Source: a virus (lineage: Duplodnaviria > Heunggongvirae > Uroviricota > Caudoviricetes). From it: DNA of 54,443 nucleotides. This document shows, in pieces, positions 4,814 through 54,443 of the stretch (position 1 is the first letter of the stretch; every line of letters starts with the position of its first letter). The notes beneath the pieces are model-generated. The model made no database searches. It was not told the origin of the DNA and was given only the letters and a program-made list of their open reading frames with translations. Where the stretch lies: IMG/VR virus record IMGVR_UViG_2579778982_000031; one strand, given 5' to 3'. The position numbers and the translations under genes were made by a program.

Positions 4814-5191
4814 ATGCGTGATATTCAAATGGTTCTGGATCGTTGGGGAGCATGGGCGGCGAGTGATAGTTCAGGAGTAGACTATTCTCCTATAGCTGCT
4901 GGGTTTAAAGGGCTTCTTCCCTATACAAGCAAAACACGTCAGGCATGTTCAGATAGTGATGCATTAATTATTGAAGGTTGTCTTGCTCGTCTAAGGCAAA
5001 AAAGGCCGGACGAACATTCGCTTCTTGTTGCCCATTACCTATACGGTATCTCTAAAAGAAAGCTCGCCAAGGCTCGTAAAAAGGATGAGAAACTAATACG
5101 CATTGAGATACAGATGGCTGAGGGGTTTATTGATGGCTGCCTATCGATGCTGGAAATTAGTCTAGAGATGGACCCCGAAATTAAAGATTGA
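4814..5191 (+). CDS. Late-gene antiterminator Q
   Basis: N-terminus MRDIQMVLDRWGAWAA typical of Q proteins; last early gene before the lysis region; GGAG RBS before the ATG at 4814. Confidence 0.6.
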   Translation: MRDIQMVLDRWGAWAASDSSGVDYSPIAAGFKGLLPYTSKTRQACSDSDALIIEGCLARLRQKRPDEHSLLVAHYLYGISKRKLAKARKKDEKLIRIEIQMAEGFIDGCLSMLEISLEMDPEIKD

Positions 5192-6225: not shown

Positions 6226-6400
6226 AAATATGTCCTCATTCTAAGCCAACTGTCACCGTGAGGTTTGGCAACGCCTGCTTTATTTTTCGTTTTAAGCTGT
6301 GTGGCAAAAAAATAATGGAAAAACAGATAAAAATCACTAACGCGGTCCGCATTTTCTAGATTACTGTGTTAAGAGTGGTTACTTCGCCACACAACTTAAA

Positions 6401-6422
6401 CCCGCCGCTGAGCGGTTTTTTT
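6401..6422 (+). terminator. Putative rho-independent terminator (tR'-like) upstream of the late genes
   Basis: GC stem CCGC-TGA-GCGG followed by T7 (CCCGCCGCTGAGCGGTTTTTTT); sits between Q and the lysis genes where lambdoid phages place tR'. Confidence 0.4.
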
Positions 6423-6520
6423 GTACCTGTAAACTTGGTGCAGCACAGTAAACACGCTGGTGGTCGTGAATACTGACTTTTTATCTTGCTGGCTTTTTAG
6501 ACAAGAGTTATTGGTATGTC

Positions 6521-13433: not shown

Positions 13434-14674
13434 TGTTCTTTTCGGGATTATTTCAACGAAAAAGTGACGCACCGGTGACCACGCCAGCAGAGCTGGTGGA
13501 TGCTATCGGGCTGTCATACGACACCTATACCGGAAAGCAGATCAGCAGCCAGAGGGCCATGCGACTGACGGCGGTTTTTTCCTGCGTCAGGGTGCTGGCG
13601 GAGTCGGTCGGGATGTTGCCCTGCAACCTGTATCACCTGAACGGCAGCCTGAAGCAGAGAGCCACTGGCGAACGTCTGCATAAGCTGATCTCCACGCATC
13701 CCAATGGCTATATGACGCCGCAGGAGTTCTGGGAGCTGGTGGTCACCTGTCTGTGCCTGCGGGGAAACTTTTACGCCTACAAAGTGAAAGCATTTGGCGA
13801 AGTGGCTGAACTGCTGCCCGTCGATCCCGGCTGTGTGGTACCGAAGCTTAACAGTAGCTGGGAGCCGGTCTATCAGGTCACATTCCCGGATGGCTCCACG
13901 GATGTACTGAGCCAGGAGGATATCTGGCATGTGCGCACGCTGACGCTGGACGGACTGGTGGGGCTGAATCCCATCGCCTATGCCCGCGAGGCAATATCGC
14001 TGGCGGCAGCGACCGAAGAGCACGGGGCCAGACTGTTCAGCAATGGCGCGGTGACGTCGGGTGTGTTGCGTACAGAGCAGACGCTGTCAGATCAGGCTTA
14101 CGAGCGCCTGAAGAAAGATTTTGAGGAGCGTCACACCGGGCTTGGCAATGCTCACCGCCCGATGATCCTTGAGATGGGGCTGGACTGGAAGTCGATGGCG
14201 CTGAACGCCGAGGACAGCCAGTTCCTGGAAACCCGCAAGTTTCAACTTGAAGAAATCTGTCGTCTGTTCCGGGTACCGTTGCACATGGTGCAGAACACCG
14301 ATCGCGCCACCTTCAACAATATCGAAGAACTGGGGCTTGGATTTATCAACTATTCACTGGTGCCGTATCTGACCCGCATCGAACAGCGGATCAACACCGG
14401 ACTGGTACGAAAAAGTAAGCAGGGCGTTTATTACGCCAAATTTAACGCCGGGGCGTTACTGCGCGGGGATATGAAGTCCCGTTTTGAAGCCTACGCCACC
14501 GGGATTAACTGGGGAATTTACTCTCCCAATGACTGCCGCGACCTGGAAGATATGAATCCGCGTCCCGGTGGTGATGTCTATCTCACACCGATGAACATGA
14601 CCACGAAACCCTCCGATGGCAGTAAAGCCGGTAAGCAGAAGGATAACGCCAATGCAGACGAAACAACGTCTTGA
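13433..14674 (+). CDS. Portal protein (HK97 family)
   Basis: ~413 aa, follows terL; GTG start after a GGAGG RBS. Confidence 0.8.
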   Translation: MFFSGLFQRKSDAPVTTPAELVDAIGLSYDTYTGKQISSQRAMRLTAVFSCVRVLAESVGMLPCNLYHLNGSLKQRATGERLHKLISTHPNGYMTPQEFWELVVTCLCLRGNFYAYKVKAFGEVAELLPVDPGCVVPKLNSSWEPVYQVTFPDGSTDVLSQEDIWHVRTLTLDGLVGLNPIAYAREAISLAAATEEHGARLFSNGAVTSGVLRTEQTLSDQAYERLKKDFEERHTGLGNAHRPMILEMGLDWKSMALNAEDSQFLETRKFQLEEICRLFRVPLHMVQNTDRATFNNIEELGLGFINYSLVPYLTRIEQRINTGLVRKSKQGVYYAKFNAGALLRGDMKSRFEAYATGINWGIYSPNDCRDLEDMNPRPGGDVYLTPMNMTTKPSDGSKAGKQKDNANADETTS

Positions 14675-35237: not shown

Positions 35238-35283
35238 ATTCGTAATGCGAAGGTCGTAGGTTCGACTCCTATTATCGGCACCA
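35238..35283 (+). tRNA. 3' fragment of tRNA-Thr(CGU) (thrW-like), candidate att site; not an intact tRNA
   Basis: ATTCGTAATGCGAAGGTCGTAGGTTCGACTCCTATTATCGGCACCA matches the anticodon-loop-to-CCA half of enterobacterial tRNA-Thr(CGU) as recalled; the 5' half is absent upstream. Confidence 0.6.
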
Positions 35284-35448: not shown

Positions 35449-36663
35449 GTGAAACTCAATGCCCGTCAAATAGACACAGCCAAGCCAAAAGAGAAGGCTT
35501 ACAAGCTGACCGATGGTGGCGGTTTGTATCTCTTGGTAAAACCTAATGGAGGTAAATACTGGCGACTTAAATATCGTGTAGCTGGTAAAGAGAAGCTATT
35601 GGCACTAGGTGTGTATCCTGAGGTTACTCTAGCCGATGCTCGGGCAAAACGTGAAGATGCGAAAAGAGGTATCGCTGGTGGTATCGATCCGATGGAAGCG
35701 AAACGAGAGGAAAAGATTGCCCGGGAAACGCAGTTAAACAACACCTTCAAAGATATTGCCCTTGAGTGGCACAGCAGCAAATTAAAAAAATGGTCTGATG
35801 GTTATGCTTCAGACATCCTCGAAGCCTTCAACAAAGATGTGTTCCCTTACATTGGCAAAAAACCCATCGCCGAAATCAAACCACTTGAACTTCTGAATGT
35901 GCTGCGTCGCATCGAGGGGCGCGGTGCTACAGAAAAAGCCAAAAAAGTGAGGCAACGGTGCGGGGAAGTTTTCCGCTATGCAATAGTCACTGGTCGCGCA
36001 GAGTATAACCCTGCACCAGACCTTACTAGCGCGATGCAAGGCCATGAATCTAATCATTACCCTTTCCTTACAGCCAAAGAATTACCTGATTTTTTCAAGG
36101 CATTGTCCAGTTACTCAGGAAGCGCATTGGTTGTTATGGCGGCTCGTCTACTGATTATCACCGGCTTGCGGACTGGCGAACTACGTGGCGCATTATGGGA
36201 TGAAATTGATTTCAACAAGGCTATCTGGGAGATACCCGCTTCACGTATGAAAATGCGGCGGCCTCATATTGTGCCATTGTCTGAGCAGGCTCTTTCGCTT
36301 ATTGGGAAGATTAGAGAAATAACAGGCAATTACCCTCTTATGTTTCCCGGGCGCAATGATCCAAGGAAAACAATGAGCGAGGCCAGCATAAACCAAGTGT
36401 TTAAGCGCATTGGCTACGCTGGACGTGTAACTGGTCATGGGTTCCGGCACACTATGAGTACGATTTTGCATGAGCAGGGCTATAACACCGCGTGGATAGA
36501 AACGCAGCTCGCTCACGTTGATAAGAACTCAATTCGTGGCACATACAACCATGCGCAATATCTGGATGGAAGGCGGGAGATGCTTCAATGGTATGCCGAC
36601 TATATGGATTCTCTCGAGCATGGCGGAAATGTGGTGCATATGGTGTTTGAAAAACACGCATGA
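35449..36663 (+). CDS. int: Tyrosine integrase, P4-like
   Basis: N-terminal DUF4102-type arm-binding region (LTDGGGLYLLVKPNGGKYWRLKYR); catalytic box GHGFRHT...; next to a tRNA 3' fragment; GTG start after GGAGGT. Confidence 0.85.
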   Translation: MKLNARQIDTAKPKEKAYKLTDGGGLYLLVKPNGGKYWRLKYRVAGKEKLLALGVYPEVTLADARAKREDAKRGIAGGIDPMEAKREEKIARETQLNNTFKDIALEWHSSKLKKWSDGYASDILEAFNKDVFPYIGKKPIAEIKPLELLNVLRRIEGRGATEKAKKVRQRCGEVFRYAIVTGRAEYNPAPDLTSAMQGHESNHYPFLTAKELPDFFKALSSYSGSALVVMAARLLIITGLRTGELRGALWDEIDFNKAIWEIPASRMKMRRPHIVPLSEQALSLIGKIREITGNYPLMFPGRNDPRKTMSEASINQVFKRIGYAGRVTGHGFRHTMSTILHEQGYNTAWIETQLAHVDKNSIRGTYNHAQYLDGRREMLQWYADYMDSLEHGGNVVHMVFEKHA

Positions 36664-38703: not shown

Positions 38704-39771
38704 ATGCTAACCGTCCAGAAGAAGATATTTTCACTGGCTGGTATGTCGCCAAAATCCAGCAATATGACAGCAAAGTCTGGCATTAATACAGCATATACAA
38801 GCAAAGTTTATCATTTTCTGGTGGTAGGAGCGGATGCCTTAACTATGTCAGAAATTACGGTCGATGGTGTTAGCGTTGAGAAGGTCGGCGGCTGCGCCAG
38901 AGAATTTCTGGTCGTAGATGGCTTTCTCTGCTCGCGTAGTGACTCCACAAAAACCTTCGTCCACACGCGCGACGTTAACGAAATGAGCGCGATGTATTGT
39001 GCATCTGGTGCTTCCAATAGTGAGTTTTCGGAGTCCATAAAAAAGAGCTTGCCGTTATGCGGCAACACGGTTTATGGTTATAAGGCACCTCATAAAACGG
39101 GTGCCGGGATTGGCGTCCTGAAAATTCTGAAGGCGACATATGACGCGCCGAGCGTCTTTTTTTATGTCGTAGGTCTGACTCACCCATTTTTTGGGCGTTG
39201 GTGTATAATCCAGCGCCTTTGTCAATCAATGGTGGCTCAGGCGGGGGCTTCTTCGGAAGCGCCGGTATCCTTCAGAGCCGGTTACGCCAACCCTGTCTGG
39301 GCTACCACCAGCGAAATTGGCGTTTCCGGTGGTAGCGTAACCTGCTATCTGAAGGAGGCTGCCACATGCTGGCTACTACCCCTACCCAAAAACCGCAATT
39401 TATCTGGATTATCGCCGCAGTTCGCCGCGATTGCCCGACAATTACCGCCAAAATTCATCATATTGCTGCCGAGTCTGAACGCGATGCTCGCCGTTCTCTG
39501 GTGCGCGATCACGTCTGCTTTTTTGCTGGTCGTATCCGCATGGAGGTGGCACATGATTAAAACCTACGATGTGCATATGGATCCCCTCGAACGCACAAGC
39601 CAGATCATCACACTGACAGAAGTGATTAACGACATTCTGGTGAGCAACTCTCCCTCACGAGACGAAAGACTGAAGGCGTTACTCGCGATATTGGATCTCG
39701 CCGTTCGTGACGTTCATTTCCTGCTGGAAGGTGGCGAAATGCCAGGAAAAACGGGGGCAACCAATGAATAA
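38704..39771 (+). CDS. Hypothetical protein; gene structure ambiguous
   Basis: 355-aa ORF whose middle looks non-protein-like; a 64-aa ORF (39366-39560, RBS AGGAGG) in another frame and a 72-aa in-frame C-terminal ORF from 39553 (RBS GGAGGT) may be the real genes. Confidence 0.3.
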
Positions 39772-41383: not shown

Positions 41384-41747
41384 AAATGCAGAAATGGCGC
41401 TTAGCTCCGCAATCGGAGAGCAGGTGGCAAAGATTGCTGGTGCTGTGTGGATTCATAACCTTCATTCTACTGGTGAAGAGAAAATGGCAATTCAGACGCC
41501 AGAGGGACGCACCATTACTACATCTCTGAAGCCGTCAGATGTTTGTGATCTGATTTGCGCATTCATGTACCCAGCAATGAGGACTGTCCACGGCGATAAG
41601 TGGAAACTTGCGACAACCGCTGAATTTGATATGTGGCTAAACAATGATGGCATGCTGACTGATTACGGAATAACCAAGTGGCAGATGCTGGTTAGCCATA
41701 TCGCAAACGCTATAGACCACGTGGGGTACGGTGATGCGAAACATTGA
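41376..41747 (+). CDS. Hypothetical protein
   Basis: 123-aa ORF overlapping the primase start. Confidence 0.45.
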   Translation: MRENAEMALSSAIGEQVAKIAGAVWIHNLHSTGEEKMAIQTPEGRTITTSLKPSDVCDLICAFMYPAMRTVHGDKWKLATTAEFDMWLNNDGMLTDYGITKWQMLVSHIANAIDHVGYGDAKH

Positions 41748-44490
41748 TCTTATCCGTCAGGTTATCAGTGCGTCTGAAAACAACTGGCCTCATGTGCTGG
41801 GCTGCCTGAACATAAATGTCCCTGACTCTCCGCGCCGTCATGCTCCCTGCCCTGCATGTGGGGGCAAAGATCGATTCCGGTTCGATGACAACGGGCGCGG
41901 TAGCTTCATCTGTAATCAGTGCGGCGCTGGTGATGGGCTGGATTTAATTAAACGCGTAAATAACTGCGACACAACAGAGGCGGCGCTTCTTGCCGCTGAT
42001 GTTCTGGGTATTGATTACCGGACAACGGAAACACCAGAAGCCACCAGCCAGAAACGGGAACAACTGGAAACCGAGCGCCAGCGACGCGAACAGGAGCGCC
42101 TGAAAAGGGCAGAGAAGGACGAACAACAAAGACGGGATACGTTTTCCCGTCAGTTTGATGACATGCGCAGAAAGGCTGTAAACGGCAAATCTGATTATCT
42201 GGTTGCGAAAGGGGTAGGTGATTTTACATTCCCCGTGTTGCCCGATGGATCTCTGTTGCTGGCGCTGGTGGATAAATCCGGCGCAGTCACAGCAGCACAG
42301 ACTATTACCTCACATGGTGAAAAAAGACTCCTGACAGGTTCAGCAAAGCGGGGGGCATATCACGCCATAAACGCACCAGAAACAACACAGAGCATCTTAA
42401 TCGCAGAAGGGCTGGCAACGGCATTATCTGCCCATTTAATTCGTCCAGAGGCGCTGACAGTGGCGGCGATTGATGCCGGGAACCTGTTATATGTCGCCCA
42501 GGTACTGCGGGATAAATATCCATCAGCACAAATCATCATTGCTGCGGATAACGACCACAGCGAAGGAAGACAAAACACGGGGAGAATAGCAGCAGAAAAA
42601 GCAGCTTTATCTGTTTCTGGATGGGTGGCATTACCCCCGACAGATCACAAAGCAGACTGGAATGATTACCACCAAAAACACGGCATTAAATGCGCCACAG
42701 AAGCGTTCAATAAGTCAATGTACCAACCACAGGGTAATGGCGTGAAACAGGAGCCACAGACCATTGAGGGAAGCGATTTTAAGGTTATGGATACCGACCC
42801 ACTGAAACCAAGAATAGAAAGCCGCGAGGATGGTATTTATTGGGTATCTCCGAGAGCTGACAGCCAGAGTGGAGAAATCATCAATAACGAAAGCTGGTTA
42901 TGTTCTCCGTTAAGCGTTATCGGTACTGGCAGAGACGATAAAGACCAGTATCTCATTCTTCGCTGGCTGTCGTTTGGTTCTGAAACGCCGACAACCGCTG
43001 CCATTCCACTGGCTGATATTGGTGAACGTGAAGGATGGCGCACACTTAAAGCTGGTGGGGTAAATGTCACGACCAAAAGCAGCCTCAGAGCAATACTGGC
43101 AGACTGGCTACAACGCAGTGGCTCTCGTGAATTGTGGCGTGTTGCTCATGCCACTGGCTGGCAATGCGGAGCGTACATCATGCCTGATGGGGAAATCATC
43201 GGAACACCTGAAAATCCTGTGCTGTTCAGCGGGAGAAGCTCAGCCGCAGCCGGATATACCGTCTCAGGGAGCGCGAAAAGCTGGCGTGATAACGTGGCGC
43301 GTCTGGCCTTTGGTAACTATTCAATGATGACCGGGATCGGCGCAGCACTGGCAGCGCCATTGATTGGGCTGGTGGGCGCTGACGGGTTCGGCATTCATTT
43401 CTATGAGCAGTCGAGCGCAGGTAAGACCACCACGGCAAACGTGGCGAGCAGCTTATACGGCAACCCTGATTTACTGCGGCTGACGTGGTACGGAACCGCG
43501 CTGGGGCTGGCAAATGAAGCCGCCGCCCACAATGACGGACTAATGCCGCTTGATGAAGTTGGTCAGGGCGCTGATCCTGTCAGTGTTTCACAGTCTGCCT
43601 ATGCGTTATTTAACGGTGTAGGGAAACTGCAAGGCGCTAAAGATGGTGGAAACCGGGATCTAAAACGCTGGCGTACAGTGGCAATCAGCACTGGAGAAAT
43701 GGATTTAGAAACATTTATCGCTACTTCCGGGCGAAAAACCAAAGCCGGGCAACTGGTGCGACTGCTGAATATTCCGTTGAGTAAAGCAGTACGCTTTCAC
43801 GATTACCAGAACGGAAAACAGCACGCAGACGCACTGAAAGACGCTTACCAGCATCACCACGGCGCAGCCGGGCGTGAGTGGATTAAATGGCTGGCAGACC
43901 ACCAGCAACAGGCAATTAAAACTGTTCGTGACTGCGAAAGCAGATGGAGAAGTCTGATCCCATCCGATTATGGTGAGCAGGTTCACCGTGTAGCCGCGCG
44001 ATTTGCCATTCTGGAGGCCGCATTGCTGTTAGGCGAGGTTGTAACAGGCTGGGATGCTCAGACATGCCGTGATGCGATACAGCACAGCTATAACGCATGG
44101 TTGCGCGAGTTCGGCACAGGTAACAAAGAACATCAGCAGATTATTGAACAAACGGAGGCATTTCTTAATGCCTATGGGCTTAGCCGTTTTGCACCATTTC
44201 CATACAGCCCGGCAGATTTGCCCATCAAAGATTTGGCCGGATACCGTCAGCGTGGAGAACATGACGAAAGCCCAATGATTTTCTACACATTCCCGGCCAC
44301 ATTTGAAAAGGAGATCGCATGTGGTTTCAACGCAAAACAGTTTGCTGAAGTGTTGAAAAAAGCCGGGATGCTAACCCCACCAAACAGCGGTCGTGGATAC
44401 CAAAGAAAATCACCACGTATTCAGGGACGACAAATAAACGTTTATGTACTCAATTACCAGCCAGGAGATTATAACTCATCTGAAGAATGA
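41734..44490 (+). CDS. Primase-helicase (P4 alpha-like; zinc ribbon + TOPRIM + P-loop NTPase)
   Basis: Zinc ribbon CPACGG...CNQCG; TOPRIM-like ILIAEGLATA and AADNDH; Walker A GIHFYEQSSAGKTTTAN; followed directly by an iteron array. Confidence 0.8.
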   Translation: MRNIDLIRQVISASENNWPHVLGCLNINVPDSPRRHAPCPACGGKDRFRFDDNGRGSFICNQCGAGDGLDLIKRVNNCDTTEAALLAADVLGIDYRTTETPEATSQKREQLETERQRREQERLKRAEKDEQQRRDTFSRQFDDMRRKAVNGKSDYLVAKGVGDFTFPVLPDGSLLLALVDKSGAVTAAQTITSHGEKRLLTGSAKRGAYHAINAPETTQSILIAEGLATALSAHLIRPEALTVAAIDAGNLLYVAQVLRDKYPSAQIIIAADNDHSEGRQNTGRIAAEKAALSVSGWVALPPTDHKADWNDYHQKHGIKCATEAFNKSMYQPQGNGVKQEPQTIEGSDFKVMDTDPLKPRIESREDGIYWVSPRADSQSGEIINNESWLCSPLSVIGTGRDDKDQYLILRWLSFGSETPTTAAIPLADIGEREGWRTLKAGGVNVTTKSSLRAILADWLQRSGSRELWRVAHATGWQCGAYIMPDGEIIGTPENPVLFSGRSSAAAGYTVSGSAKSWRDNVARLAFGNYSMMTGIGAALAAPLIGLVGADGFGIHFYEQSSAGKTTTANVASSLYGNPDLLRLTWYGTALGLANEAAAHNDGLMPLDEVGQGADPVSVSQSAYALFNGVGKLQGAKDGGNRDLKRWRTVAISTGEMDLETFIATSGRKTKAGQLVRLLNIPLSKAVRFHDYQNGKQHADALKDAYQHHHGAAGREWIKWLADHQQQAIKTVRDCESRWRSLIPSDYGEQVHRVAARFAILEAALLLGEVVTGWDAQTCRDAIQHSYNAWLREFGTGNKEHQQIIEQTEAFLNAYGLSRFAPFPYSPADLPIKDLAGYRQRGEHDESPMIFYTFPATFEKEIACGFNAKQFAEVLKKAGMLTPPNSGRGYQRKSPRIQGRQINVYVLNYQPGDYNSSEE

Positions 44491-44513
44491 GCTTCTTCAT
44501 GTGCGTAGAAAAG

Positions 44514-44640
44514 GTGTTGGTTCAGTTGGTTCAGTTGGTTCAGTTGGTTCAATTTGTAAAGAGTATTGTTTTATAAGGATTTTATTCTTTTTATTGAACC
44601 AACACTGAACCAACAACACGGTATTTTGAACCAACACAAT
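44514..44640. repeat. Iteron array, candidate replication origin of the satellite-like element
   Basis: Four tandem GTTGGTTCA, an AT-rich spacer, then three inverted TGAACCAAC copies; immediately downstream of the primase-helicase. Confidence 0.6.
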
Positions 44641-44955
44641 GTGACTGAATTGATGCGCACAACACCTGGCTGGCATCAGAGAGTGTTTTACGAGACTTTC
44701 GTAAAATCCTGTGTACAAGGGCGTGACGTTTTTGAAAGTGAGCACTACGAAATTTTCGTAGTTCAAAAAACAGCCTCTGAGAAGTTGTTATGCCTGTTCA
44801 GCAAACCATCCGCATAGCTGATCGCGAATCAAATTACCAATGGAGCCAGAAGCAAGGGCAGAACTGAAAAGTGCCTGCCGTGAAGAGTAATGCGACACCA
44901 TAAATATAGTTTTTAGAGTCCATAAAAAACCAGTCAAAACCTGACACACAGAACG

Positions 44956-44988
44956 ATGCCACCAGCTACTGAGCGGTGGCATTTTTTT
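44956..44988 (+). terminator. Rho-independent terminator
   Basis: 8-bp stem ATGCCACC/GGTGGCAT with ~10-nt loop followed by TTTTTTT. Confidence 0.5.
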
Positions 44989-45083
44989 GTGCTATTTGTT
45001 TCATATTTTGCAATTACGATGATGAATATTGCGATTTATGAAACTATAATAACTGTTGTTTTATACAGTTCTAAGGGGGCGTT

Positions 45084-45245
45084 ATGGCTATTTCAGTAAA
45101 GCCGGTATTGATAAGTGAGAAGCAAATGGAAGCGATAAAGAAAATTCAGGAAGAGCAGCGTAAAAAATCAGGAATTGGAGTAGCGCCAACTCTGCATGAA
45201 ATTGCTCGAGGGTTAATAGATAAGGCGCTGGCAGGCTGTATGTGA
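45084..45245 (+). CDS. Small putative DNA-binding protein
   Basis: 53-aa ORF not in the supplied track; AAGGGGG RBS 5 nt before the ATG; lysine-rich helical composition. Speculative. Confidence 0.3.
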   Translation: MAISVKPVLISEKQMEAIKKIQEEQRKKSGIGVAPTLHEIARGLIDKALAGCM

Positions 45246-45261
45246 AAATGGATGGCATCGC

Positions 45262-45723
45262 ATGGAACTAAAATTTATTGATAACCCTGTGCGATTACAG
45301 GCCTTTCTTAACGATCCTGGCAATACCGAAAATATTGTTGAGCCGGGGCACACGTACTACATCAAGCCTGATGCGGTATATCTCGGCATCTACGAAGGAT
45401 TGGTGCTGGCTGGCGTTCATGAAGTGCGTAACTTCTGGCATAGCGTTGTTGAATGCCATGCGGTGTATGACCCCGGATTCCGTGGTGAATATGCACTGCA
45501 AGGGCATCGACTATTCTGCAAATGGCTTCTCGAAAACTCACCATTCCTTAACAGCATCACTATGGTTCCTGACACCACGAAATACGGACGGGCAATTATC
45601 CGTTTGCTTGGCGCTACCCGTGTTGGTCACCTTGATGATGCTTATATCAGATGTGGTAAACCCGTCGGCGTAACGCTTTATCAGTTAACTCGGCAACAAT
45701 ATAAGGAATTCAGCGAATGTTAA
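45262..45723 (+). CDS. Hypothetical protein (first gene of cargo cassette)
   Basis: 153 aa, start overlapped by the next gene; no motif recognised. Confidence 0.45.
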   Translation: MELKFIDNPVRLQAFLNDPGNTENIVEPGHTYYIKPDAVYLGIYEGLVLAGVHEVRNFWHSVVECHAVYDPGFRGEYALQGHRLFCKWLLENSPFLNSITMVPDTTKYGRAIIRLLGATRVGHLDDAYIRCGKPVGVTLYQLTRQQYKEFSEC

Positions 45724-46394
45724 TTACCCATATAGCTCATAAACATCTCAATCGTGCCGTATACGAAAAAGGCGGTGATGGTGGTGCCTCTAAAGCTCAG
45801 GCGAAGGCCCAGCAGCAGGCAATTGATTTGCAGCGCGAGCAGTGGAATACGGTGATGAATAATCTCAAGCCGTATGCAGAAGTCGGATTGCCTGCTTTAC
45901 AACAACTACAAGGACTGATGACTCTGGAAGGGCAGAATAAAGCCGCGAATGATTTCTTTGGTTCTGGTTTATATAAAACACAGGCAGATCAGGCCCGTTA
46001 TCAGAACCTTGTCTCAGCAGAAGCTACCGGGGGGCTTGGCTCAACAGCTACCAGTAACCAGTTATCTTCCATTGCGCCCATGCTTTATAACAATTGGCTT
46101 AGTGGGCAAATGCAAAATTATGGAAACCTGCTAAATGTCGGGATGAATGCGGCATCAGGGCAGGCAACGGCAGGGCAAAACTACGCCAATAATACCGGAC
46201 AACTCTTGCAGGGGCTTGGCGCTATTCGTGCAGGTCAGGCGCAGCAGCCATCCAGTCTTGCGCGTGGTATTGGTGGGGCAGCATCAGGCGCTTTAGCGGG
46301 TGCGCAACTTGGTTCCGTTGTTCCTGGAATAGGTACTGCGGCAGGCGCTATTGGTGGTGGGCTTATTGGTCTTGTTGGGGGGCTTGGATTCTAA
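45717..46394 (+). CDS. Hypothetical Gly/Ala/Gln-rich protein with hydrophobic glycine-zipper C-terminus
   Basis: 225 aa; C-terminal GIGTAAGAIGGGLIGLVGGLGF; coupled to flanking genes. Confidence 0.45.
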   Translation: MLITHIAHKHLNRAVYEKGGDGGASKAQAKAQQQAIDLQREQWNTVMNNLKPYAEVGLPALQQLQGLMTLEGQNKAANDFFGSGLYKTQADQARYQNLVSAEATGGLGSTATSNQLSSIAPMLYNNWLSGQMQNYGNLLNVGMNAASGQATAGQNYANNTGQLLQGLGAIRAGQAQQPSSLARGIGGAASGALAGAQLGSVVPGIGTAAGAIGGGLIGLVGGLGF

Positions 46395-47713
46395 TGGCGA
46401 CATGGCAACTTGGCGGGCTGCCTAGCATGGCACCGCAAAATGATAATGCTCCTCGTTCTTCCGTTCCTCAGCCTGTGCAGTATCAGCAGCAGCCAAACGT
46501 AGGTTTAATGGCGCTACAGGGGCTAAGAGGCGTTGCTGAGATTAATCAGCAGGCGCAAATTTCCCAGCAGCTAAAAGAATATCAGGCACAGTTGGGTAGT
46601 GCGGTAGCTAATAATGATCGTGTTGGCGTGCAGAAGTTAATGGCCCAGTATCCCCAGTTTATGGCTGATTCTCAAAAACAGATGGGATTCATTGATGCTG
46701 AGCAAAATCGGCAGACCGCTGACGCTGCCATGAATCTGCGTCTTGCGTCACAAACTGGAGATCCACTGACCATGCAGAAGGCCATTCAGCAGGCAAATCC
46801 AGTATTACAGCGATTTGGTCTTCCTGCTGAAGAGGTTTATCAGTCTTGGCAGAATGACCCACAGGAATTCAACAGAATCACTGACCTCATCCACCTCCAT
46901 GCTGATCCAAATAGTTACTTTAGTGTTCAAGAGAAGCAGCAAGGGCAGAGTATTGCACAGCAGAACGCAGATACATCTGCATATAATGCTCAGGTTAATG
47001 CGGAACAGGGTAATCGGCGTCTCGATATGGAGCAGTTCAAAGTCCTATCCGATAACCAGCTACGCACGAGAGAAATGGTTCTGAAAGCACGACTTGGACG
47101 TGCTCAAAATGACATCGAGAGAGACAAGCTCAATGCTGAACTGAGCAAGGTACAGCAGGCGAAAGTGGAGAAGATGAACGATAAAATTAATACTGTTGCA
47201 GGTAACATCGACTCCTTGAACTCTGCGCTTGAAGTGGGTCATGAACTGGCGGGAATTGTAGGGAAACATCCTTCGGCCGTTACCCGTTCGCAGAACTATA
47301 ACCCCCTGACGCTGGGGTTTGGATTCCTTCCTGATGTAGCAGAAGACACACGAAGCCTACGCGCCAAAGCTGATGAATACAACCTAAAGGTTATTCTGCC
47401 TAGCCTCAAAGGGACTTTTGGCTCTAACCCAACCGAAGGGGAAAGGGCTGCCCTTATGCAATCTCAAAATGGCATTAAGTCAGCAACCAGCAATGAGGCA
47501 TTTTTGCGAGAGTTGAATAAAGCGCAGGACGTAATTATTCGAATGCAGAAACGACAGATTGCCGGGCTCGGTATTCCTGTAACCAAATCTAAGGACGAAG
47601 AAACTGATACTAAAATGCTGTTGCAGGATCCTTCTCTGGTTAAGGATTATGTGACCGCACATGGCTATCTGCCGGAAAGTTACTATCAGGCAAAACTTAA
47701 GGGATGGCAATGA
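46394..47713 (+). CDS. Hypothetical Gln-rich coiled-coil protein
   Basis: 439 aa, strongly helical and Gln/Ala-rich; ATG overlaps the previous stop. Confidence 0.45.
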   Translation: MATWQLGGLPSMAPQNDNAPRSSVPQPVQYQQQPNVGLMALQGLRGVAEINQQAQISQQLKEYQAQLGSAVANNDRVGVQKLMAQYPQFMADSQKQMGFIDAEQNRQTADAAMNLRLASQTGDPLTMQKAIQQANPVLQRFGLPAEEVYQSWQNDPQEFNRITDLIHLHADPNSYFSVQEKQQGQSIAQQNADTSAYNAQVNAEQGNRRLDMEQFKVLSDNQLRTREMVLKARLGRAQNDIERDKLNAELSKVQQAKVEKMNDKINTVAGNIDSLNSALEVGHELAGIVGKHPSAVTRSQNYNPLTLGFGFLPDVAEDTRSLRAKADEYNLKVILPSLKGTFGSNPTEGERAALMQSQNGIKSATSNEAFLRELNKAQDVIIRMQKRQIAGLGIPVTKSKDEETDTKMLLQDPSLVKDYVTAHGYLPESYYQAKLKGWQ

Positions 47714-50430
47714 TGGCACAACTGACAGAAAAACAGAAAGCCTATTCCCGTCATCTCGATGAAAAATATGGTTTCCCATCAGGGACGATGGAAACATTAG
47801 TTGGCAATGAATCTAGTGGTAACGGAAGTGCCGAGTCACCGAAAGGAGCTAGAGGATTTGCTCAACTGATGCCCTCAGTAATGAGTGATGCTGGTTATCG
47901 TGGAACAGATCCGCGCTCACTGCCATTTGAAAAGCAAATGGATATCGCAGCAAACCATCTCAATAAAGGAATGAAGCGATTTGGTGATATAGGTATGGCA
48001 TTGGCTGGGTATAATTCTGGCTATGCTCGTATTAATGCCGTAAGAAACGGTAAATCTACACTGCCAGATGAAACGGCTAATTACGTAAGTAAATTTGCAG
48101 ATGCCGGAATAATCCCTGATGACAGTGAAATCTTGCAGTTTGCACAAACCAGTCAACATCGCAATCTTCAGCAGCCTGACTACTCAGAGCTTGATAAAGA
48201 AATCTCTCAGGTGGGAGATATTTCTGCATGGGAAGCAAAACGTCAGCAATTTAAGAACATAGAAGCAGGACTACCAACAGCCAGTTCATGGGAGCAGAAA
48301 AGAGCTCATTTTCTCGCCGATGAAAATGCCGGGGAACCGCAGCAGCAAGTAGCCAAGTCTAACCTTAATCCTGAGATGGAATATCTTTCGCCAGGACTGA
48401 AAGCTGCGCCAGAGCAGATGGCCAGAGGGATTGCTAATATACCGTTTGATGTAATGGACGCAGGCGTGGGGGTAGTCAATGCGGCGCAATCAGCCGGAGC
48501 ATGGGCAGCTCAGAAGCTTGGTGTGGGTGATGGTACATACACGCCCATATCACCTGTCTTTCGCCCAGTAGACCAACCTACAGATCCATACGCGCAGGCT
48601 GGTGAGCAGCTAGCACCTTACCTTATTACAGGATTAGGTGCAGGAAAGGCAGCTACCGCAGCTTCTTCAGTTGCCAACGCTCCACGTGCTGAACGTGCGG
48701 CCACAAAGGTGGCTAGTATGTTGGCAGAAAACCTGCCAGGTACATTGGTGAACGCCCAAAAGAACGGGCAGATCAGCCCAGAAGACCTAGCAAAAGAGAC
48801 AGGTATTGGCCTAGCAGGATCGCTAGGAGCACGCGCTTTAATAAAGAGCGGACAGACAGCCAGTGACGTAATGCGAGATGTATTGCGGAGTAATACAAAT
48901 CAATCAAGCTATGTGTTAGGGGCAGCAAATACTCTGGAAACCGCCAATGATGTATCGAAAGCAGCGCGTTCTGCCGTAGGCCGAGAGCATATCGCATCGC
49001 AGGCATCAAACGTCAGAGATGATGTCGCTAAGGCGGCGAAAATCACTGGTATTAATATCAACACCCTGACGCCTGGAATGCGCTCAGGTAGTCGTGGAAT
49101 TGCCCAAGCAGAAGGTGTTCTGGCATCAACTCCTGGGAATGTTCAGGATGCTCACCTTACGGCCTTCAATGAAATATCCTCAAAGTTGAATAAGCAGTTG
49201 TCTGATTTCGGTGCTGAGTCTGGAAGCGCATCAGAAAAAAGCGCAGCAATTAAAGAGCGCATTATCGCGAGCCTCAGTGATATGAAAACAGCAGAGAATA
49301 TGGCATGGGCAGAACTGCGAAGCACGATGCCACGCGAAAGGATGAAAATGAGTAATGGGATGGCTGTCGTCCAAGCAGAAAAAGCAGCCAATGTTCCACT
49401 CAGCCCGGAGATGAAACAGTTTCAGGCTGCCAATAACCAAGGTGGCGGCATAACCTTCGACGGGATGAAGGCATGGCGTGCTAAGTTTGCTGATGCTGAA
49501 CAAGCAAACACCCGGGCAGGTAAGGCCAATGCCGCCCGGGTTGCCGGAGAAATGCGCAGAGCTATCACTGATGACATGCGCATCATGGCTGAAAAAGGAA
49601 ACTTCCTCACAGAATGGCAGAAAGCTAACGATCTCTCTAAAAGTTACATTATCGCCAAACAAAATGCCGAATCTGTTTTTGGTCGAGATCTCGCATCAGA
49701 CGCTATGGTAAGAAAAGGTGCCGATACGCTTAAGGCATCCGCAAACACTGGAACGGGAGCTTTTCACCGTCTTATCTCCGCGCTGCCGGAAGCAGAACGC
49801 CAACCAGCAATAGCATCTATTCTTCAGCATGCTGTGGCGCAGGGAGAGAAGGGAGGAATCGGTGAAGAGTCTGGTATCCAGTATTTTGCCAAGCTCATGA
49901 CCCAGCAGAATGTAAACGCCATCAGTCGTCATGCGCCAGATCTCGGTAGAATGATGAAAGAGTTCGGTGTACTCGCTAAAGCCAGCACCAGACCGCAGCG
50001 ATACGTAGAGCGCACGGGAAGAACAACTGAGGCTCTCAAAACGCTCGATTCAGGCCTTCCAAAGATCGTCGGCGTGATTATGAACGGAGTTCAACAGTCA
50101 GGTGCGATCGCTGGAGGCTTTGGCGGTGGTGTAATTGGTTCGATTAGTGGTTTGGTTGCTGGTGGCGCGCTGAGAAATACTGTGGCTAAGATTGGGGCGA
50201 CAAGAAGTGGTCGATATGCGATAGAGAAAGCCGTTCAGGAAGCTACAAAAGCAGTGCGCGCAGGGGCATCACCAGCAGCGATCGCCGCAGCAGAGAAACG
50301 ATTTTCGGCCAATAAAATTGCCATGAAAGCAATTCGTGATGCCGTTGGGGCTGAAGAATTCGTGAAACTGACAAGGGCCGGGATTGTAGCTACCCTCAGT
50401 GGCATGAAAGATGTTAGCGAATGGGAATAG
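47704..50430 (+). CDS. Large protein with N-terminal soluble lytic transglycosylase (SLT) domain
   Basis: SLT motifs ESSGNGSAESPKGARGFAQLMP and AGYNSGYARIN in the first ~130 aa; the remaining ~780 aa are Ala-rich helical with a Gly-rich hydrophobic patch near the C-terminus. Confidence 0.6.
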   Translation: MAMMAQLTEKQKAYSRHLDEKYGFPSGTMETLVGNESSGNGSAESPKGARGFAQLMPSVMSDAGYRGTDPRSLPFEKQMDIAANHLNKGMKRFGDIGMALAGYNSGYARINAVRNGKSTLPDETANYVSKFADAGIIPDDSEILQFAQTSQHRNLQQPDYSELDKEISQVGDISAWEAKRQQFKNIEAGLPTASSWEQKRAHFLADENAGEPQQQVAKSNLNPEMEYLSPGLKAAPEQMARGIANIPFDVMDAGVGVVNAAQSAGAWAAQKLGVGDGTYTPISPVFRPVDQPTDPYAQAGEQLAPYLITGLGAGKAATAASSVANAPRAERAATKVASMLAENLPGTLVNAQKNGQISPEDLAKETGIGLAGSLGARALIKSGQTASDVMRDVLRSNTNQSSYVLGAANTLETANDVSKAARSAVGREHIASQASNVRDDVAKAAKITGININTLTPGMRSGSRGIAQAEGVLASTPGNVQDAHLTAFNEISSKLNKQLSDFGAESGSASEKSAAIKERIIASLSDMKTAENMAWAELRSTMPRERMKMSNGMAVVQAEKAANVPLSPEMKQFQAANNQGGGITFDGMKAWRAKFADAEQANTRAGKANAARVAGEMRRAITDDMRIMAEKGNFLTEWQKANDLSKSYIIAKQNAESVFGRDLASDAMVRKGADTLKASANTGTGAFHRLISALPEAERQPAIASILQHAVAQGEKGGIGEESGIQYFAKLMTQQNVNAISRHAPDLGRMMKEFGVLAKASTRPQRYVERTGRTTEALKTLDSGLPKIVGVIMNGVQQSGAIAGGFGGGVIGSISGLVAGGALRNTVAKIGATRSGRYAIEKAVQEATKAVRAGASPAAIAAAEKRFSANKIAMKAIRDAVGAEEFVKLTRAGIVATLSGMKDVSEWE

Positions 50431-50580
50431 ACGCTCTAACTAACAAAACCATAATAGCCAAGGACGGCATACTGATATTGAGCCAACTATCAAAATTCCA
50501 TATCACATTACGAGCCTGTGGCTTACATTCGCTTACAGTGATGATAATTTATAACCACGCAATTCTTAGGTGAGATTATC

Positions 50581-51279
50581 ATGATTAAAAATCTTCTTTT
50601 AATATTATCCCTGTCATTATTGGCTGGATGCGTACAAAAACCGTTAGTAACGGTCAATGCTTTATCTTCCGGGCAATCTGTCGGTAAGAAGTTCTTGATC
50701 ATCCCCGCAAGCCAAGAACTTTGGAACACCAAACAGATTGAATACACTCAAATAGCTACGGTAGTAGCCGCCAGTTTATCAAGCCAAGGATATACACAAG
50801 TTAAAGATGAAAAATTGGCTGACCAGGTAATTCTCTTGAACTTTTTGAGAAGCGGGGCCATTTCAAATACTCGTAATGTAACCATCCCAATATACGGGCA
50901 AACTGGTGTGAGCTCAGCAACAACGTACGGAAACTCGAACACCACGTTCAATAGTTATGGTGGTGGCTACGGTACAGCTAATACCACTGGAACGGCAACA
51001 ACAGTTTATACGCCTACTTATGGAATTACTGGCGCGTATAACACAACTGTGACGGACACGTTCTACGGCGCAGGGGTGATACTCCAGTCGTTTGATGCCA
51101 AGGCCTATCTCAATAATAGGCAGATTAATATGTTATGGAAAGTTGGTAGCTCAGTCGTCTCGCAACAGTCTGATGGAATTGCTGATTACAAGGGGTTGGC
51201 GAGAATAGCCGCTAGCTATGCCGGGAAAAATACAGAAGGTGATATAACTTTTAATGTTGACCCTAAAGCACCAAATTAA
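50581..51279 (+). CDS. Lipoprotein, Thr/Gly/Tyr-rich
   Basis: Signal peptide with lipobox LLAGC; low GC; central Thr/Gly/Tyr-rich repeats. Confidence 0.6.
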   Translation: MIKNLLLILSLSLLAGCVQKPLVTVNALSSGQSVGKKFLIIPASQELWNTKQIEYTQIATVVAASLSSQGYTQVKDEKLADQVILLNFLRSGAISNTRNVTIPIYGQTGVSSATTYGNSNTTFNSYGGGYGTANTTGTATTVYTPTYGITGAYNTTVTDTFYGAGVILQSFDAKAYLNNRQINMLWKVGSSVVSQQSDGIADYKGLARIAASYAGKNTEGDITFNVDPKAPN

Positions 51280-52138
51280 CTAATAAGCCCGGTACGCCGG
51301 GCATTTTGCCCCCTATTATTCATGAATCGCTTTTTCTAGAAGGTATGCGACAAACGTTAAGTGACATTGCCTACACATTCGGGGCGGGATTTCAAATCCG
51401 CTCCCAGTTGATGGGGCCGTTACAGTACGCGCATATCCGCTTTATGTGAAACAGGAAGATTTTTCTGATATCACTGCCACAGCAAAACACCAATTTCGAG
51501 ACAAGTACGCGCGCGAGGGGTATCAGTTGCAAAAAATTTTGCAACTACGTCCGACCAATACACACACGATGGCGGGGGATACCATAAAACTGTTCTCTAC
51601 ATGAGACAGAGTGGTGGTGATGTGTTGATTATCGGCCTATATGCGCACAGGACGCGCTATGACAATGTTTTATGCGGGTACACCAATCACATGTATCTGG
51701 TGTGATAAATCGCGTTACATGACCTCTCATGTTGTGCTGGTGGTTATCACGACGTTCTGAATCTGGCTTTTGTCTGATATTTTGCGACAAGTACGCGCGC
51801 GTAACATCGAAATTATCGGATGGCGTATGTTGCTGGCAAGATAAAGTCGGCGTAATACAAAGGCGTTACTTGATAGCAGCAAGATTACAACAATGGTTGT
51901 TGAATTTGAGCGATGTAAGGAATTGATTTAGGGAGGCGCTGATGGCTAAAAAGTTCCACTACCAGCGGATGAATGCGCCAGCGATGGCCGTTTGGTAGTA
52001 AAAGAGGAGCCATTCCTCAATCAGTTGAATACATTATGCCAACTAAATGGGTGGGGGCACTGTGTGGGTATTCAGCGGTGACGGTATTTTTTAAGCCAAG
52101 GACTATCCGTAGCAGGGGGACTCATTTTGAAATATTTA

Positions 52139-52576
52139 TCATATGTAACTTATTATTTTAGATAAAGATTTCCAGTTAAAGAAAAAAGTTATCATTGATA
52201 TAATCAAATATGCCCCTGCGAGTAGCAGGGCATAATAATCCAGAGGCAGATTGCTGACAACAGGGGCAAACATCGAGATCATTGCTAATAGGCAGGCTGT
52301 GATCAGCGTAGTTCCTGTATCAAAAAGCCCCTCAATAATGCCTTTTAGTACTCCGTTACTTTTTAGAGCGCCTACAATTCCCTTTGAACTATCAAAGCTA
52401 CTTAGCATGGTGACTGATGCCAAAACAAAACCAAAGAGAACTCCAGAAATAGTTGAAAGAGCACCAGCAGCCGAAATGACAGCATTGTGATCTAGGTCGT
52501 GTAAAAAATGGGCACCAGCAATAGCCATAGCTAGAGCAAACAATGACTTGGCAGCAAACAATTTCCGAGAACTCAT
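52139..52576 (-). CDS. Small four-TM membrane protein (RexB-like architecture)
   Basis: 145 aa with four hydrophobic helices; 12 bp downstream of the 361-aa gene on the same strand. Confidence 0.5.
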   Translation of the reverse strand: MSSRKLFAAKSLFALAMAIAGAHFLHDLDHNAVISAAGALSTISGVLFGFVLASVTMLSSFDSSKGIVGALKSNGVLKGIIEGLFDTGTTLITACLLAMISMFAPVVSNLPLDYYALLLAGAYLIISMITFFFNWKSLSKIISYI

Positions 52577-52588
52577 AATGTATTCCTG

Positions 52589-53674
52589 TTACGTTTGACT
52601 AACCAAATAGTACTGGGTTAGATACCTAAGGTTGTCATTCTTTGCTTGTAGCATAGCATTTTTAACGTCAGTATCGGTCGGGTACCCATCTGCTTGGATA
52701 GGCACCATCTTCTTTACCGTAAGAACTTCGTCTACAAGACTTTTCTTCTTTTTATCGCCCTGAGCAACAACATTTGCTTTCTCAAAAGTTAAACGACCAT
52801 CACCACCAGGGAACTTTTCTAGCATCTCCTTAAGGCTTTTTTTAACGTCATCCTCAAGCCATCCCTTTGCTTTTCTTTTTAATGGAGCATGTCCGCGTAA
52901 CGAAATAGTCAGGTGGCTTGAACTGGTGCCTCTGATCATCTCAATCATCTGATTCGCGAACATTCCATCGAGTTGATACTGTGCGGCATTGAAGTTTCTT
53001 GGGATGGCCACAGAAATCTCGCAGCTTCTTAGATTGGATCCAGTTTCGAGTAGTTCTTTGATGCTTTCTTCTTTCCAAATGGCTTCAAAAGAAACAGGGA
53101 CTCCGCGATCACTGGAGTTGAAAAGAAGGAAGGCTAAGTCACTATGGCGTGGACCTAAATGATTTAAAGACAATACTAGAATGTCTGTCTGAGGATAATA
53201 AATAAAGTATGTACGTTCTGAAAGAGTCTTTGCCCCGGCTAGAGGGATTTTCTCTTCCACCCACTCTTTATCTGTAATATATGCCAGTGTTGCGCTTTTT
53301 CTTCTTCGAGACATGAATCCGAAGTAGGAGCCATCCTCGGGTGAGATGTCTAGAAAATGAATTTTAAGTTCTCTTTCACCAAAGTCTGCATAGTGGGTCA
53401 TCTTGAAGTCTTTAGAACACCGATCATAGAGATTTTTAAAGGCCTCTGCGGTTAACCCCTTGTTACTAGTGCGAATATTCTCAGAGCTTGTGTAAAAGCC
53501 CACCCTTACAGATTTCAAACTTTGATCTTTTGGTGCCACAGTCATTTGAGCTCCATTGTACTCTGCGATAGTTTTTGCACACCTTGAAATCAAAATCTCC
53601 ATGTCAGTCACGAGAAAATAACTATGGATGAAACCCATCAAAGGCATTGAATACAGGTGGCTTTTGAGAATCAT
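52589..53674 (-). CDS. Hypothetical cytoplasmic protein (RexA-like position)
   Basis: 361 aa, AT-rich codon usage, no TM segment, no motif recognised; first gene of a two-gene reverse-strand operon. Confidence 0.5.
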   Translation of the reverse strand: MILKSHLYSMPLMGFIHSYFLVTDMEILISRCAKTIAEYNGAQMTVAPKDQSLKSVRVGFYTSSENIRTSNKGLTAEAFKNLYDRCSKDFKMTHYADFGERELKIHFLDISPEDGSYFGFMSRRRKSATLAYITDKEWVEEKIPLAGAKTLSERTYFIYYPQTDILVLSLNHLGPRHSDLAFLLFNSSDRGVPVSFEAIWKEESIKELLETGSNLRSCEISVAIPRNFNAAQYQLDGMFANQMIEMIRGTSSSHLTISLRGHAPLKRKAKGWLEDDVKKSLKEMLEKFPGGDGRLTFEKANVVAQGDKKKKSLVDEVLTVKKMVPIQADGYPTDTDVKNAMLQAKNDNLRYLTQYYLVSQT

Positions 53675-54019
53675 CCTAACCTGGTGACGGTGGTTCGCAT
53701 ATCCTGATGGATGATCAGTGATTAATCAATGCGCCAAGCAGATGTGTCTATGTGTTTGTTAATCATTGCATGACAGTAGATCGACATGGGAGATCACGTT
53801 ATATAGTTGAATTGTTAGGATATCCATGCACCGATCAACTGACTAGGCTGATGTGCTTTTTAGCAGGTGCCATATAGTAGTTAGGCGGTTCTGTGAAATG
53901 ATTACTGTTCCAGCATAACTGCGGCATAAAGCGGTGCTATATAAGCTATTTGCTGGCGGATTTAGTCTTCACCGTTCATATATGTAGTGACTATTTGACA
54001 GAGTGTTAGTTCACGGACA

Positions 54020-54130
54020 CTTTTTGTTGGTTCAAAATGAGTTGATGTTGGTTCAATATTTTAGAAAAAACACAATAAAAACAACGCTCTTTACAAATTG
54101 AACCAACTGAACCAACTGAACCAACACCTT
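54020..54130. repeat. Inverted second copy of the iteron/ori module
   Basis: Reverse complement of the 44514-44640 module with one fewer repeat per arm; shared flanks GCAAAAAGGTGTTGG and CAATTTGTAAAGAG. Confidence 0.55.
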
Positions 54131-54161
54131 TTTGCTTATCTATATAATCTGAGAGGCAGAA

Positions 54162-54443
54162 ATGATAAGGGACAGGAAAGCTGAAGAGCTGGAGTCAAAA
54201 GGGCTATACCGGAGAGCTGCCGCACGATGGATGGAAGTCATGCTGTTATGCAGCGAGGACGATGATCGGGAATGGATAAAGCGCCGCCGTGAAACGTGTC
54301 TGGAGAACGTGAAGCGCCCGCCCGTGAAGGTTGAGGAATTTGGCGACCTGCATAAAGCTGTTACCGAAACGCAACACCGCATGGGGATAGCGCAACCGAA
54401 CGGTAACGCCTTCCGGTTAAATGGCGGCAAGAGGCAAAGGTAG
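54162..54443 (+). CDS. PerC/ANR-family regulator-like protein
   Basis: AEELESKGLYRRAAARWMEVM motif, paralogous to the gene at 1132-1620; ends in TAG at the window edge. Confidence 0.55.
   Translation: MIRDRKAEELESKGLYRRAAARWMEVMLLCSEDDDREWIKRRRETCLENVKRPPVKVEEFGDLHKAVTETQHRMGIAQPNGNAFRLNGGKRQR

Follow-up and report, generated by a model that had tools for sequence, protein, structure and literature searches.

In Enterobacterales, virulence, defence and helper-interference genes are carried by phage-inducible chromosomal islands (PICIs) and P4-like satellites, both of them abundant, and the organisation and exchange of accessory regions in satellites is an active question. The replication origin of the Staphylococcus aureus pathogenicity islands (SaPIs) has an AT-rich region flanked on either side by two or more iterons, in opposite orientation and read by the C-terminal winged-helix domain of Rep, and it is placed just downstream of rep, Rep being thought to self-load one hexamer per side (PMC9371898). 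EcCIMP1 of Escherichia coli MP1 is a published PICI of 19,963 bp with the att core TCCTATTATC (Pick et al. 2025, PMC11773190), the excision and transduction of which were shown experimentally in MP1 to occur only with the P22-like helper phage Kapi1 (vB_EcoP_Kapi1); origin, iterons and an inverted pair are not mentioned in that paper (0 occurrences) (PMC11773190). Here we analysed a 54,443-bp stretch of DNA (IMG/VR record IMGVR_UViG_2579778982_000031, 50% G+C; hereafter the window), the right part of which is assigned to an EcCIMP1-type island, and found two mirror-image iteron units, A beside the primase-helicase gene and B 9.4 kb away, which probably form one bipartite origin with accessory genes lying inside it.

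By querying both strands of the whole window, 12 exact copies of the 9-mer GTTGGTTCA were found, all within 44516-44635 and 54026-54125, against a chance expectation of 0.47; a chance origin of these clusters was rejected, as 12 copies were attained in 0 of 100 shuffles. A 13th iteron with one mismatch (GTTAGTTCA, 54005-54013) makes block B complete, and the two blocks are composed as follows:

44509..44643, plus strand: origin unit A, ~135 bp, beginning 19 nt past the primase stop codon
44516-44551: tandem iterons of unit A, four copies of GTTGGTTCA in 9-bp phase
44552-44594: spacer of unit A, 43 bp, 84% A+T
44595, 44606 and 44627: opposed iterons of unit A, three copies of TGAACCAAC with 11- and 21-bp spacing
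53998..54132, minus strand: origin unit B, ~135 bp, mirror image of A
54005 (one mismatch), 54026 and 54047: spaced iterons of unit B, three copies of GTTGGTTCA
54056-54098: spacer of unit B, 43 bp, 79% A+T
54099-54125: tandem iterons of unit B, three copies of TGAACCAAC

With 4 forward and 3 reverse iterons in A, 3 and 3 in B, and an AT-rich spacer in both, each unit fits the canonical SaPI/PICI origin layout independently, A having one tandem iteron more than B. When A (44509-44643) was aligned globally with B (53998-54132) in reverse complement, 105 of 147 columns were identical (71%), and two pairs of inverted arms were delimited, one of 48 nt (44525-44572 and 54078-54125, 96% complementary) and one of 43 nt (44601-44643 and 54018-54060, 79% complementary). 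An earlier note on this DNA had described the iteron module beside the primase-helicase as recurring in reverse complement beyond ~9.4 kb of cargo, and this agrees with the confinement of the 12 exact 9-mers to two inverted blocks and with the measured distance of 9.37 kb (44635 to 54005). The exact alignment, which had been named as a possible refutation, likewise extends beyond a 9-mer shared by chance; the ‘matching flanks’, however, were overstated, as only 7 nt (AAAAGGT/ACCTTTT) match between the blocks outside the tandem arrays, and the next 100 nt on either side of the blocks are identical at 28/100 and 22/100 positions, i.e. at chance level.

To place the pair in its family, one genome per species was scanned with the primase alignment, yielding 80 loci of 27-100% protein identity, and iterons were mapped downstream of each primase gene; 45 loci were informative. 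Contiguous and split states were called from 9-mer matches with at most one mismatch, leaving four loci (L023, L031, L035 and L046) unclassified. In at least 24 of the 45 loci, spread across Enterobacterales, an A-like unit is followed within 45-100 bp by a mirror-image iteron set just 3′ of the primase gene, the adjacent units together making a dyad-symmetric origin of ~300 bp. Direct reading of the sequence gave complete A+B pairs for Morganella (L030) and for L028 (labelled Pseudomonas lundensis); in a common contiguous variant (L003), A is kept and the second unit is shortened, its spacer having lost its A+T richness. The iteron 9-mer differs by lineage (GTTGGTTCA, TGTTGTCTC, GTTGTACCA, AGTGTGTCA, GTTGTCTCA, GTCGGTTTT, AAAGTGGGT and others), and within each lineage both units always share one 9-mer. 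L006, L047 (labelled Chryseobacterium sp. 18061) and L028 are enterobacterial-type islands in possibly contaminated or mislabelled assemblies, with primases 61-79% identical to the E. coli one and enterobacterial-type origins; no conclusion depends solely on these three loci. The two units are split, with the following gaps, in:

this window: 9.4 kb
E. coli L001 (NZ_CP148430, 12-kb circular): 1.8 kb
E. coli L090: 5.4 kb
E. coli L088: 8.3 kb
E. coli MP1 (EcCIMP1), L087: 8.4 kb, units at 5017-5129 and 13557-13669
E. coli L089: 9.9 kb
Lonsdalea L014: 5.8 kb
Cedecea L039: 6.7 kb
Leclercia L037: 8.3 kb
Chimaeribacter L020: 8.7 kb
Pantoea L024: 8.9 kb

The pair in the window accordingly reads as the normal double origin of the family pulled apart, not as a locus-specific duplication. 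A second origin, one of three readings offered by the earlier note, had come closest to this. As accessory genes occupy the linker between the two units, the origin is probably bipartite in the window's lineage. Two things are new here: the origin of this family consists of two mirror-image units, and it can accommodate accessory genes between them. Moreover, across 7 genera (the split-state genera and Morganella), the mean pairwise identity of the iteron columns in B was 0.93 versus 0.56 in the other columns, paralleling the 0.90 versus 0.54 determined for A, and this parallel indicates that the iterons of B are constrained as those of A are, with the inter-iteron sequence drifting.

Both units could be linked to the protein encoded directly upstream of A, for which two features are relevant:

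41734..44490, plus strand: primase-helicase of 918 aa (Pfam Zn_Ribbon_Prim, Toprim_3 and DUF927)
44404..44421, plus strand: codons for RKSPRI (residues 891-896), a C-terminal motif co-varying with the iteron sequence

Residues 8-362 share 33% identity with the P4 alpha primase domain (E 9e-42), similarity to P4 alpha not being found past residue ~362, and residues 403-814 match the SaPI Rep helicase structure 8TCH (E 1e-11). The protein is thus, by homology, a P4-alpha-type primase joined to a SaPI-Rep-type self-loading helicase, and it is the likely initiator that would recognise the iterons via its C-terminal domain. Two primase groups, each ~80% identical to the window's, differ in their origins, one having GTTGGTTCA and the other TGTTGTCTC iterons; all 8 fixed amino-acid differences between them fall at residues 823-910, which would place the specificity determinant in the C-terminal ~100 residues, and 5 of the 8 fall at residues 891-896 (GYQRKSPRI in the GTTGGTTCA group versus GYQGRV-RE in the TGTTGTCTC group). 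Judged from these alignments, the specificity region would lie where SaPI Rep and P4 alpha have theirs, and the co-variation of the iteron with the primase C-terminus appears to tie both units to the adjacent protein.

The island that carries the two units is bounded in the window on its left side:

35267..35276, plus strand: attL core TCCTATTATC, in a partial tRNA-Thr 3′ end, with one exact match in the window

This core is the left boundary of the PICI, an SfII-like prophage being a separate element left of attL. From 35238 to its end the window is 100% identical to the thrW (tRNA-Thr) island of E. coli CB209 (L002), and the match to the CB209 thrW locus starts only at 35238; the CB209 island is therefore the window's own element, with attL and attR cores at 6268 and 27144 of L002. 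Compared with the E. coli MP1 island EcCIMP1, the nucleotide identity is 98.8% over 10.9 kb comprising the primase, unit A and the ejection cassette, and 95% for unit B and PerC. A tyrosine recombinase gene (35449-36663) adjoins the attL core, giving an att-bounded element with an integrase at its end, and a helix-turn-helix (HTH) regulator after int precedes the TOPRIM-DUF927 primase and then unit A, which is the order of an AlpA-type regulator, primase and iteron origin in PICIs. By this gene content and order, the host element is classified as a thrW-integrated PICI of EcCIMP1 type. Both units lie inside the single att pair of CB209, and att cores, wherever findable, enclose both units (both cores in L002, L014 and L037; attR in L088 and L089). 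Phage and plasmid collections yielded just short matches to P22-like ejection genes and the 12-kb circular NZ_CP148430, a related island in which 1.8 kb separates the two units.

Outside unit B, on its right, two features follow:

54126..54148, plus strand: T-rich tract and TATATAAT box, just beyond the B tandem iterons and upstream of the next rightward gene
54162..54443, plus strand: PerC-family gene, directly after unit B (Pfam PerC, E 1.2e-30)

The Pfam match substantiates the PerC-like gene that the earlier note had placed after the second copy, and the B-PerC junction is kept in six E. coli relatives (L001, L084 and L087-L090). A comparable TTATATA box, 12-20 nt past the tandem iterons of B, is also present in L028, L030, L033 and L039 and thus conserved among lineages that differ in their iterons. 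The next gene beyond the box always points rightward; its product is PerC, a 161-aa protein or a small membrane protein. Since the conserved T-rich tract and TTATATA box precede a rightward gene, B might also, or instead, act as an operator; a sigma-70 consensus scan at unit B and the TATATAAT box found no promoter, and a promoter at unit B was rejected on this ground. At the far left of the window, in the prophage, an O-like replication gene (188-1620, HTH_36) contains iterons within its coding region (476-598, 15-bp period), and after it comes a 164-aa open reading frame (ORF) with a PerC domain (E 4.5e-9), just as had been noted earlier, so that a PerC-family gene stands just downstream of an iteron origin in prophage and satellite alike.

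One E. coli relative (L084) illustrates how replication modules are exchanged. It has an unrelated DUF5906 primase with inverted iteron clusters of its own, of GGTACAG type (6378-6485 and 7487-7601), which bracket two small genes, in support of a double origin with genes inside it; homology to the window resumes at 44682, ~40 nt past the end of block A, and an intact orphan GTTGGTTCA unit B lies before PerC (14466-14586). Among E. coli genomes, B with the PerC start was found in 514, compared with 364 for the cognate primase end with A (both at ≥80% coverage). This layout and these counts indicate that primase and proximal origin are exchanged as a cassette, B staying with PerC.

Taken together, A and B are probably mirror-image origin units of an EcCIMP1-type PICI that form a bipartite origin, analogous to P4 crr/ori. 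This reading is built on the observed architecture and conservation of the two units, on the co-variation of both with the primase C-terminus and on the variability of the cargo between them. Upon induction of the island by a helper phage, the primase-helicase would bind and occupy both iteron arrays; each unit would then be able to melt its A+T spacer and load helicase hexamers, B would fire as well as A, and the two units would probably cooperate by communicating through protein-mediated looping.

Several points weigh against this reading. Binding of the primase to the iterons, those of B included, is predicted from sequence, and the winged-helix assignment of its C-terminus is by analogy only, because the AlphaFold2 models were unusable (pLDDT, the predicted local distance difference test, of 48 for residues 800-919 modelled as a single sequence, and of 36 for the full length with a 9-sequence alignment). 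One unit may suffice, since the second unit of L003 has lost its AT-rich spacer, and only unit A was found within 10 kb in some relatives (L026 and L027); such A-only relatives and the orphan copies suggest that the second iteron cluster 9.4 kb away, its conserved iterons notwithstanding, may be dispensable. The intact orphan B beside a different primase in L084 indicates that B can persist without a replication role, at least in the short term, and the larger number of genomes with B than with the cognate primase and A points the same way; an intact B is therefore no proof of present function. In addition, co-variation within the split state comes solely from the DUF5906 case, because the cross-genus split examples all share one iteron type.

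These points lead to the main rival explanation, which we regard as unlikely, namely that B is a left-over origin hitch-hiking with PerC, without a replication role and at most an operator, in which version the primase on the tandem iterons near the TATATAAT box would tune PerC and the leftward gene often abutting B. The B-PerC block outnumbers the cognate primase with A by ~150 E. coli genomes, and an orphan B accompanies the DUF5906 primase of L084, but the orphan copies are nearly identical to the cognate ones and so look like recent recombinants. Although some relatives have only A within 10 kb, in most B is contiguous with A and part of one origin. The constancy of the B-PerC junction, when all left of B varies, and the retention of the T-rich tract and TTATATA box across iteron lineages, with a rightward gene next, would suit an operator, whereas the sigma-70 scan was without a promoter at B; B also still has every part of an origin unit, the 43-bp A+T spacer among them, and its iterons match those of A in conservation across genera whose primases are 56-78% identical to the window's.

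Two further explanations are both very improbable. A 48-nt inverted arm at 96% identity suffices for occasional RecA-dependent exchange, by which the 9.4-kb segment could be an invertible or recombination-prone cassette with its cargo flipping orientation, as the earlier note had considered. Yet a synthetic inverted-junction query was matched in none of 5,426 complete E. coli genomes at ≥80% coverage (527 of them carry the parts), the cargo is co-oriented with the primase in all relatives examined, and Pfam and PHROGs gave no match to an invertase or recombinase domain for the proteins of the cargo; an invertible segment of the Hin, Gin or shufflon type was thus rejected. Equally improbable is that the blocks are the terminal inverted repeats of a transposon-like insertion or the seam of two tandem islands, the latter resembling the junction with another element that had been proposed. 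Inverted repeats do flank a strain-variable gene set, but no transposase was found, there is no target-site duplication, with flanks at chance identity, and cargo-free relatives keep both blocks side by side, which is the opposite of an insertion bringing its own ends, so that a transposon with terminal inverted repeats was rejected. L089, with two PerC genes, looks composite; however, no att core lies between its halves, and two tandem islands were rejected for it. More generally, both blocks lie within one att pair, and the EcCIMP1 unit, which excises experimentally (PMC11773190), contains both origin modules, against a seam or an inter-element junction.

Between the two units, the window holds the following cargo:

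45084-45245, plus strand: small conserved ORF, start of cargo part 1 (45084..50430)
45262-50430, plus strand: P22-type ejection cassette of gp14-, gp7-, gp20- and gp16-like genes (Pfam DUF2824, P22_gp7, Inj_translocase and SLT)
50581..51279, plus strand: predicted lipoprotein (signal peptide then Cys, from the translation)
51381..51846, no strand assigned: conserved non-coding stretch with 2-3 copies of GACAAGTACGCGCGCG, left edge of the variable slot
52139..53674, minus strand: variable-slot gene pair, a soluble 318-361 aa protein, then a 145-aa multi-pass membrane protein

What had been called an SLT cassette does contain an SLT domain, at the N-terminus of the gp16-like protein, but is as a whole a P22-type gp14/gp7/gp20/gp16 ejection cassette (PHROGs 651, 598, 917 and 770; the gp14-like protein is DUF2824), with identical annotation in CB209 and MP1. 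The SLT lytic transglycosylase domain is an acquisition of the gp16-like protein, and the ejection cassette also occurs in the Leclercia and Buttiauxella relatives (L027, 15752-20899; L046, 14059-17778). Outside E. coli, the cargo comprises, among others, lipoproteins, tape-measure-like or SLT-containing proteins and a leftward gene, itself conserved, whose product resembles ribbon-helix-helix proteins at its N-terminus; as other genera have tape-measure-like or SLT proteins in the position of the cassette, the slot is suggested to hold proteins matched to the helper virion. No family match was obtained for the lipoprotein in Pfam, PHROGs or PADLOC. The non-coding stretch 51381-51846 recurs at 95-96% identity in L087, L088 and L090 and at 89.5% in L084, where the neighbouring genes differ, and an RNA gene in this repeat-rich region was rejected because Rfam gave no match at E ≤1 (51.3-52.1 kb).

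The slot directly left of B is the most variable part of the island, being occupied by the two-gene pair in the window and by an Abi, ImmA/IrrE, HTH or ribbon-helix-helix-type gene in relatives, the one in MP1 being a small HTH gene. The pair in the window belongs to PHROGs 7651 and 8552, families without assigned function, and had been described as RexAB-like. For its larger protein a weak colinear match to lambda RexA was indeed seen (27% over 127 aa, E 0.005 in a single comparison), whereas the smaller one, although RexB-sized, had no pairwise sequence match to RexB, and Pfam and PADLOC searches were without match; a known defence system for the pair or the lipoprotein was accordingly rejected. 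The pair is a candidate two-gene abortive-infection system. The earlier note had also proposed to compare related genomes for cargo that varies between fixed iteron boundaries. In the relatives compared, the cargo varies and the modules stay, but the boundary is fixed on the B side only: in six E. coli relatives, homology to the window is regained without exception at the inner edge of B (54003 or 54025), while its left-hand stretch passes through A and ends within the cargo, at 45232, 45649, 46554 or 51846.

A more far-reaching and speculative proposal, which we consider rather improbable, is that the centre of the dyad-symmetric origin is a privileged cargo slot between helicase-loading units, with primase-mediated looping cooperation over up to ~10 kb, as between ori and crr of P4, and with the inner edge of B as a fixed crossover point for cassette exchange. 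If so, the initiation machinery itself would be coupled to the turnover of the cargo, and perhaps also to its early or additional replication, and helper-matched virion genes and candidate defence genes would be carried inside the origin.

Elsewhere in the island, Rfam matches to C4 antisense RNA (79.9 bits, E 1.4e-14) and isrK RNA (67.8 bits) were obtained at 39085-39312, within an ‘ash family protein’ ORF (38704-39771) downstream of an antA/antB gene. P1/P7 and P4 show this order of C4 RNA and ant in their c4-icd-ant immunity arrangement, for which reason the long ‘ash’ ORF call may be partly spurious. The remainder of the window (1-35237) belongs to another element, a prophage of the Shigella SfII/SfI/SfIV type that shares one tRNA-Thr site with the PICI, the two standing there in tandem. 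Over 83% of its first 24 kb it is 97% identical to phage vB_EcoM-689R6, and it is contractile-tailed, unlike the P22-like helper of EcCIMP1. At its right end beside the att site, a typical place for a prophage-borne defence gene, it encodes a 917-aa protein with AAA_21/AAA_23/SMC_N-type ATPase matches (32122-34875, minus strand).

The EcCIMP1 family now has an explicit origin map, absent from its only description, together with a short primase C-terminal motif that tracks iteron specificity; a split mirror-image origin was not found described in the literature searched. In the E. coli elements examined, as in several genera, the accessory genes are flanked by the two units, and their edge at B is sharp and conserved. 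Should both units be active, iteron class and primase C-terminus would offer a simple handle for engineering or typing satellites, and if B is inactive it would still be a marker of the reshuffling of replication modules and cargo between satellites.

Compared with known systems, the window island shares its thrW site and att core with EcCIMP1, and both origin units are present in MP1 as well. Initiators that bind separated repeated sites are known from R6K, where the gamma origin is joined with the alpha and beta origins by initiator-mediated looping, and dyad-symmetric origins from SV40 and papillomavirus, where mirror sites load two hexamers of a superfamily 3 (SF3) helicase in opposite orientations; the proteins are unrelated to those of the EcCIMP1 family, for which looping or double hexamers would hold by analogy only. 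Closer is the Rep-ori arrangement of SaPIs and PICIs (EcCICFT073 pri-rep-ori; SaPI1, SaPI5 and SaPIbov1), which shares with the window island an origin directly 3′ of the initiator gene, short opposed iterons around an A+T-rich region, a self-loading helicase initiator with a homologous helicase part and, here by analogy, an iteron-reading C-terminal domain, and the layout of int, alpA-type regulator, primase, ori and accessory genes. The published descriptions found for these elements show one unit, whereas the EcCIMP1 family normally has two mirror-image units, 9.4 kb apart in the window's element, and the iterons are penta- or hexanucleotides in SaPIs but 9-mers here.

With P4 the island shares the homologous primase domain and, as far as the positions can be compared, the distribution of iterons over two sites: in P4 an iteron unit, crr, lies immediately 3′ of alpha, the position of unit A, and ori with identical iterons is 4.7 kb away. 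Each crr unit is likewise built from a tandem pair of iterons in 9-bp phase, separated by a T-rich spacer from iterons of opposite orientation. The crr is reportedly needed in cis and is said to tolerate changes of distance and orientation. The P4 helicase is, however, not of the DUF927 type, while that of the window is DUF927/SaPI-Rep-like; crr consists of two direct 120-bp repeats and ori has another layout, in contrast to the two single mirror-oriented units found here; and core genes (alpha, cI and others) lie between the sites in P4, where accessory genes lie in the window. Given the different helicase family, the single, mirror-oriented units and the absence of the P4 hallmark genes sid, delta and psu from the annotation of the island, the element is not a member of the P4 family. 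If both units are active, it would be a second, independent example of the P4 ori/crr principle, realised with a different helicase.

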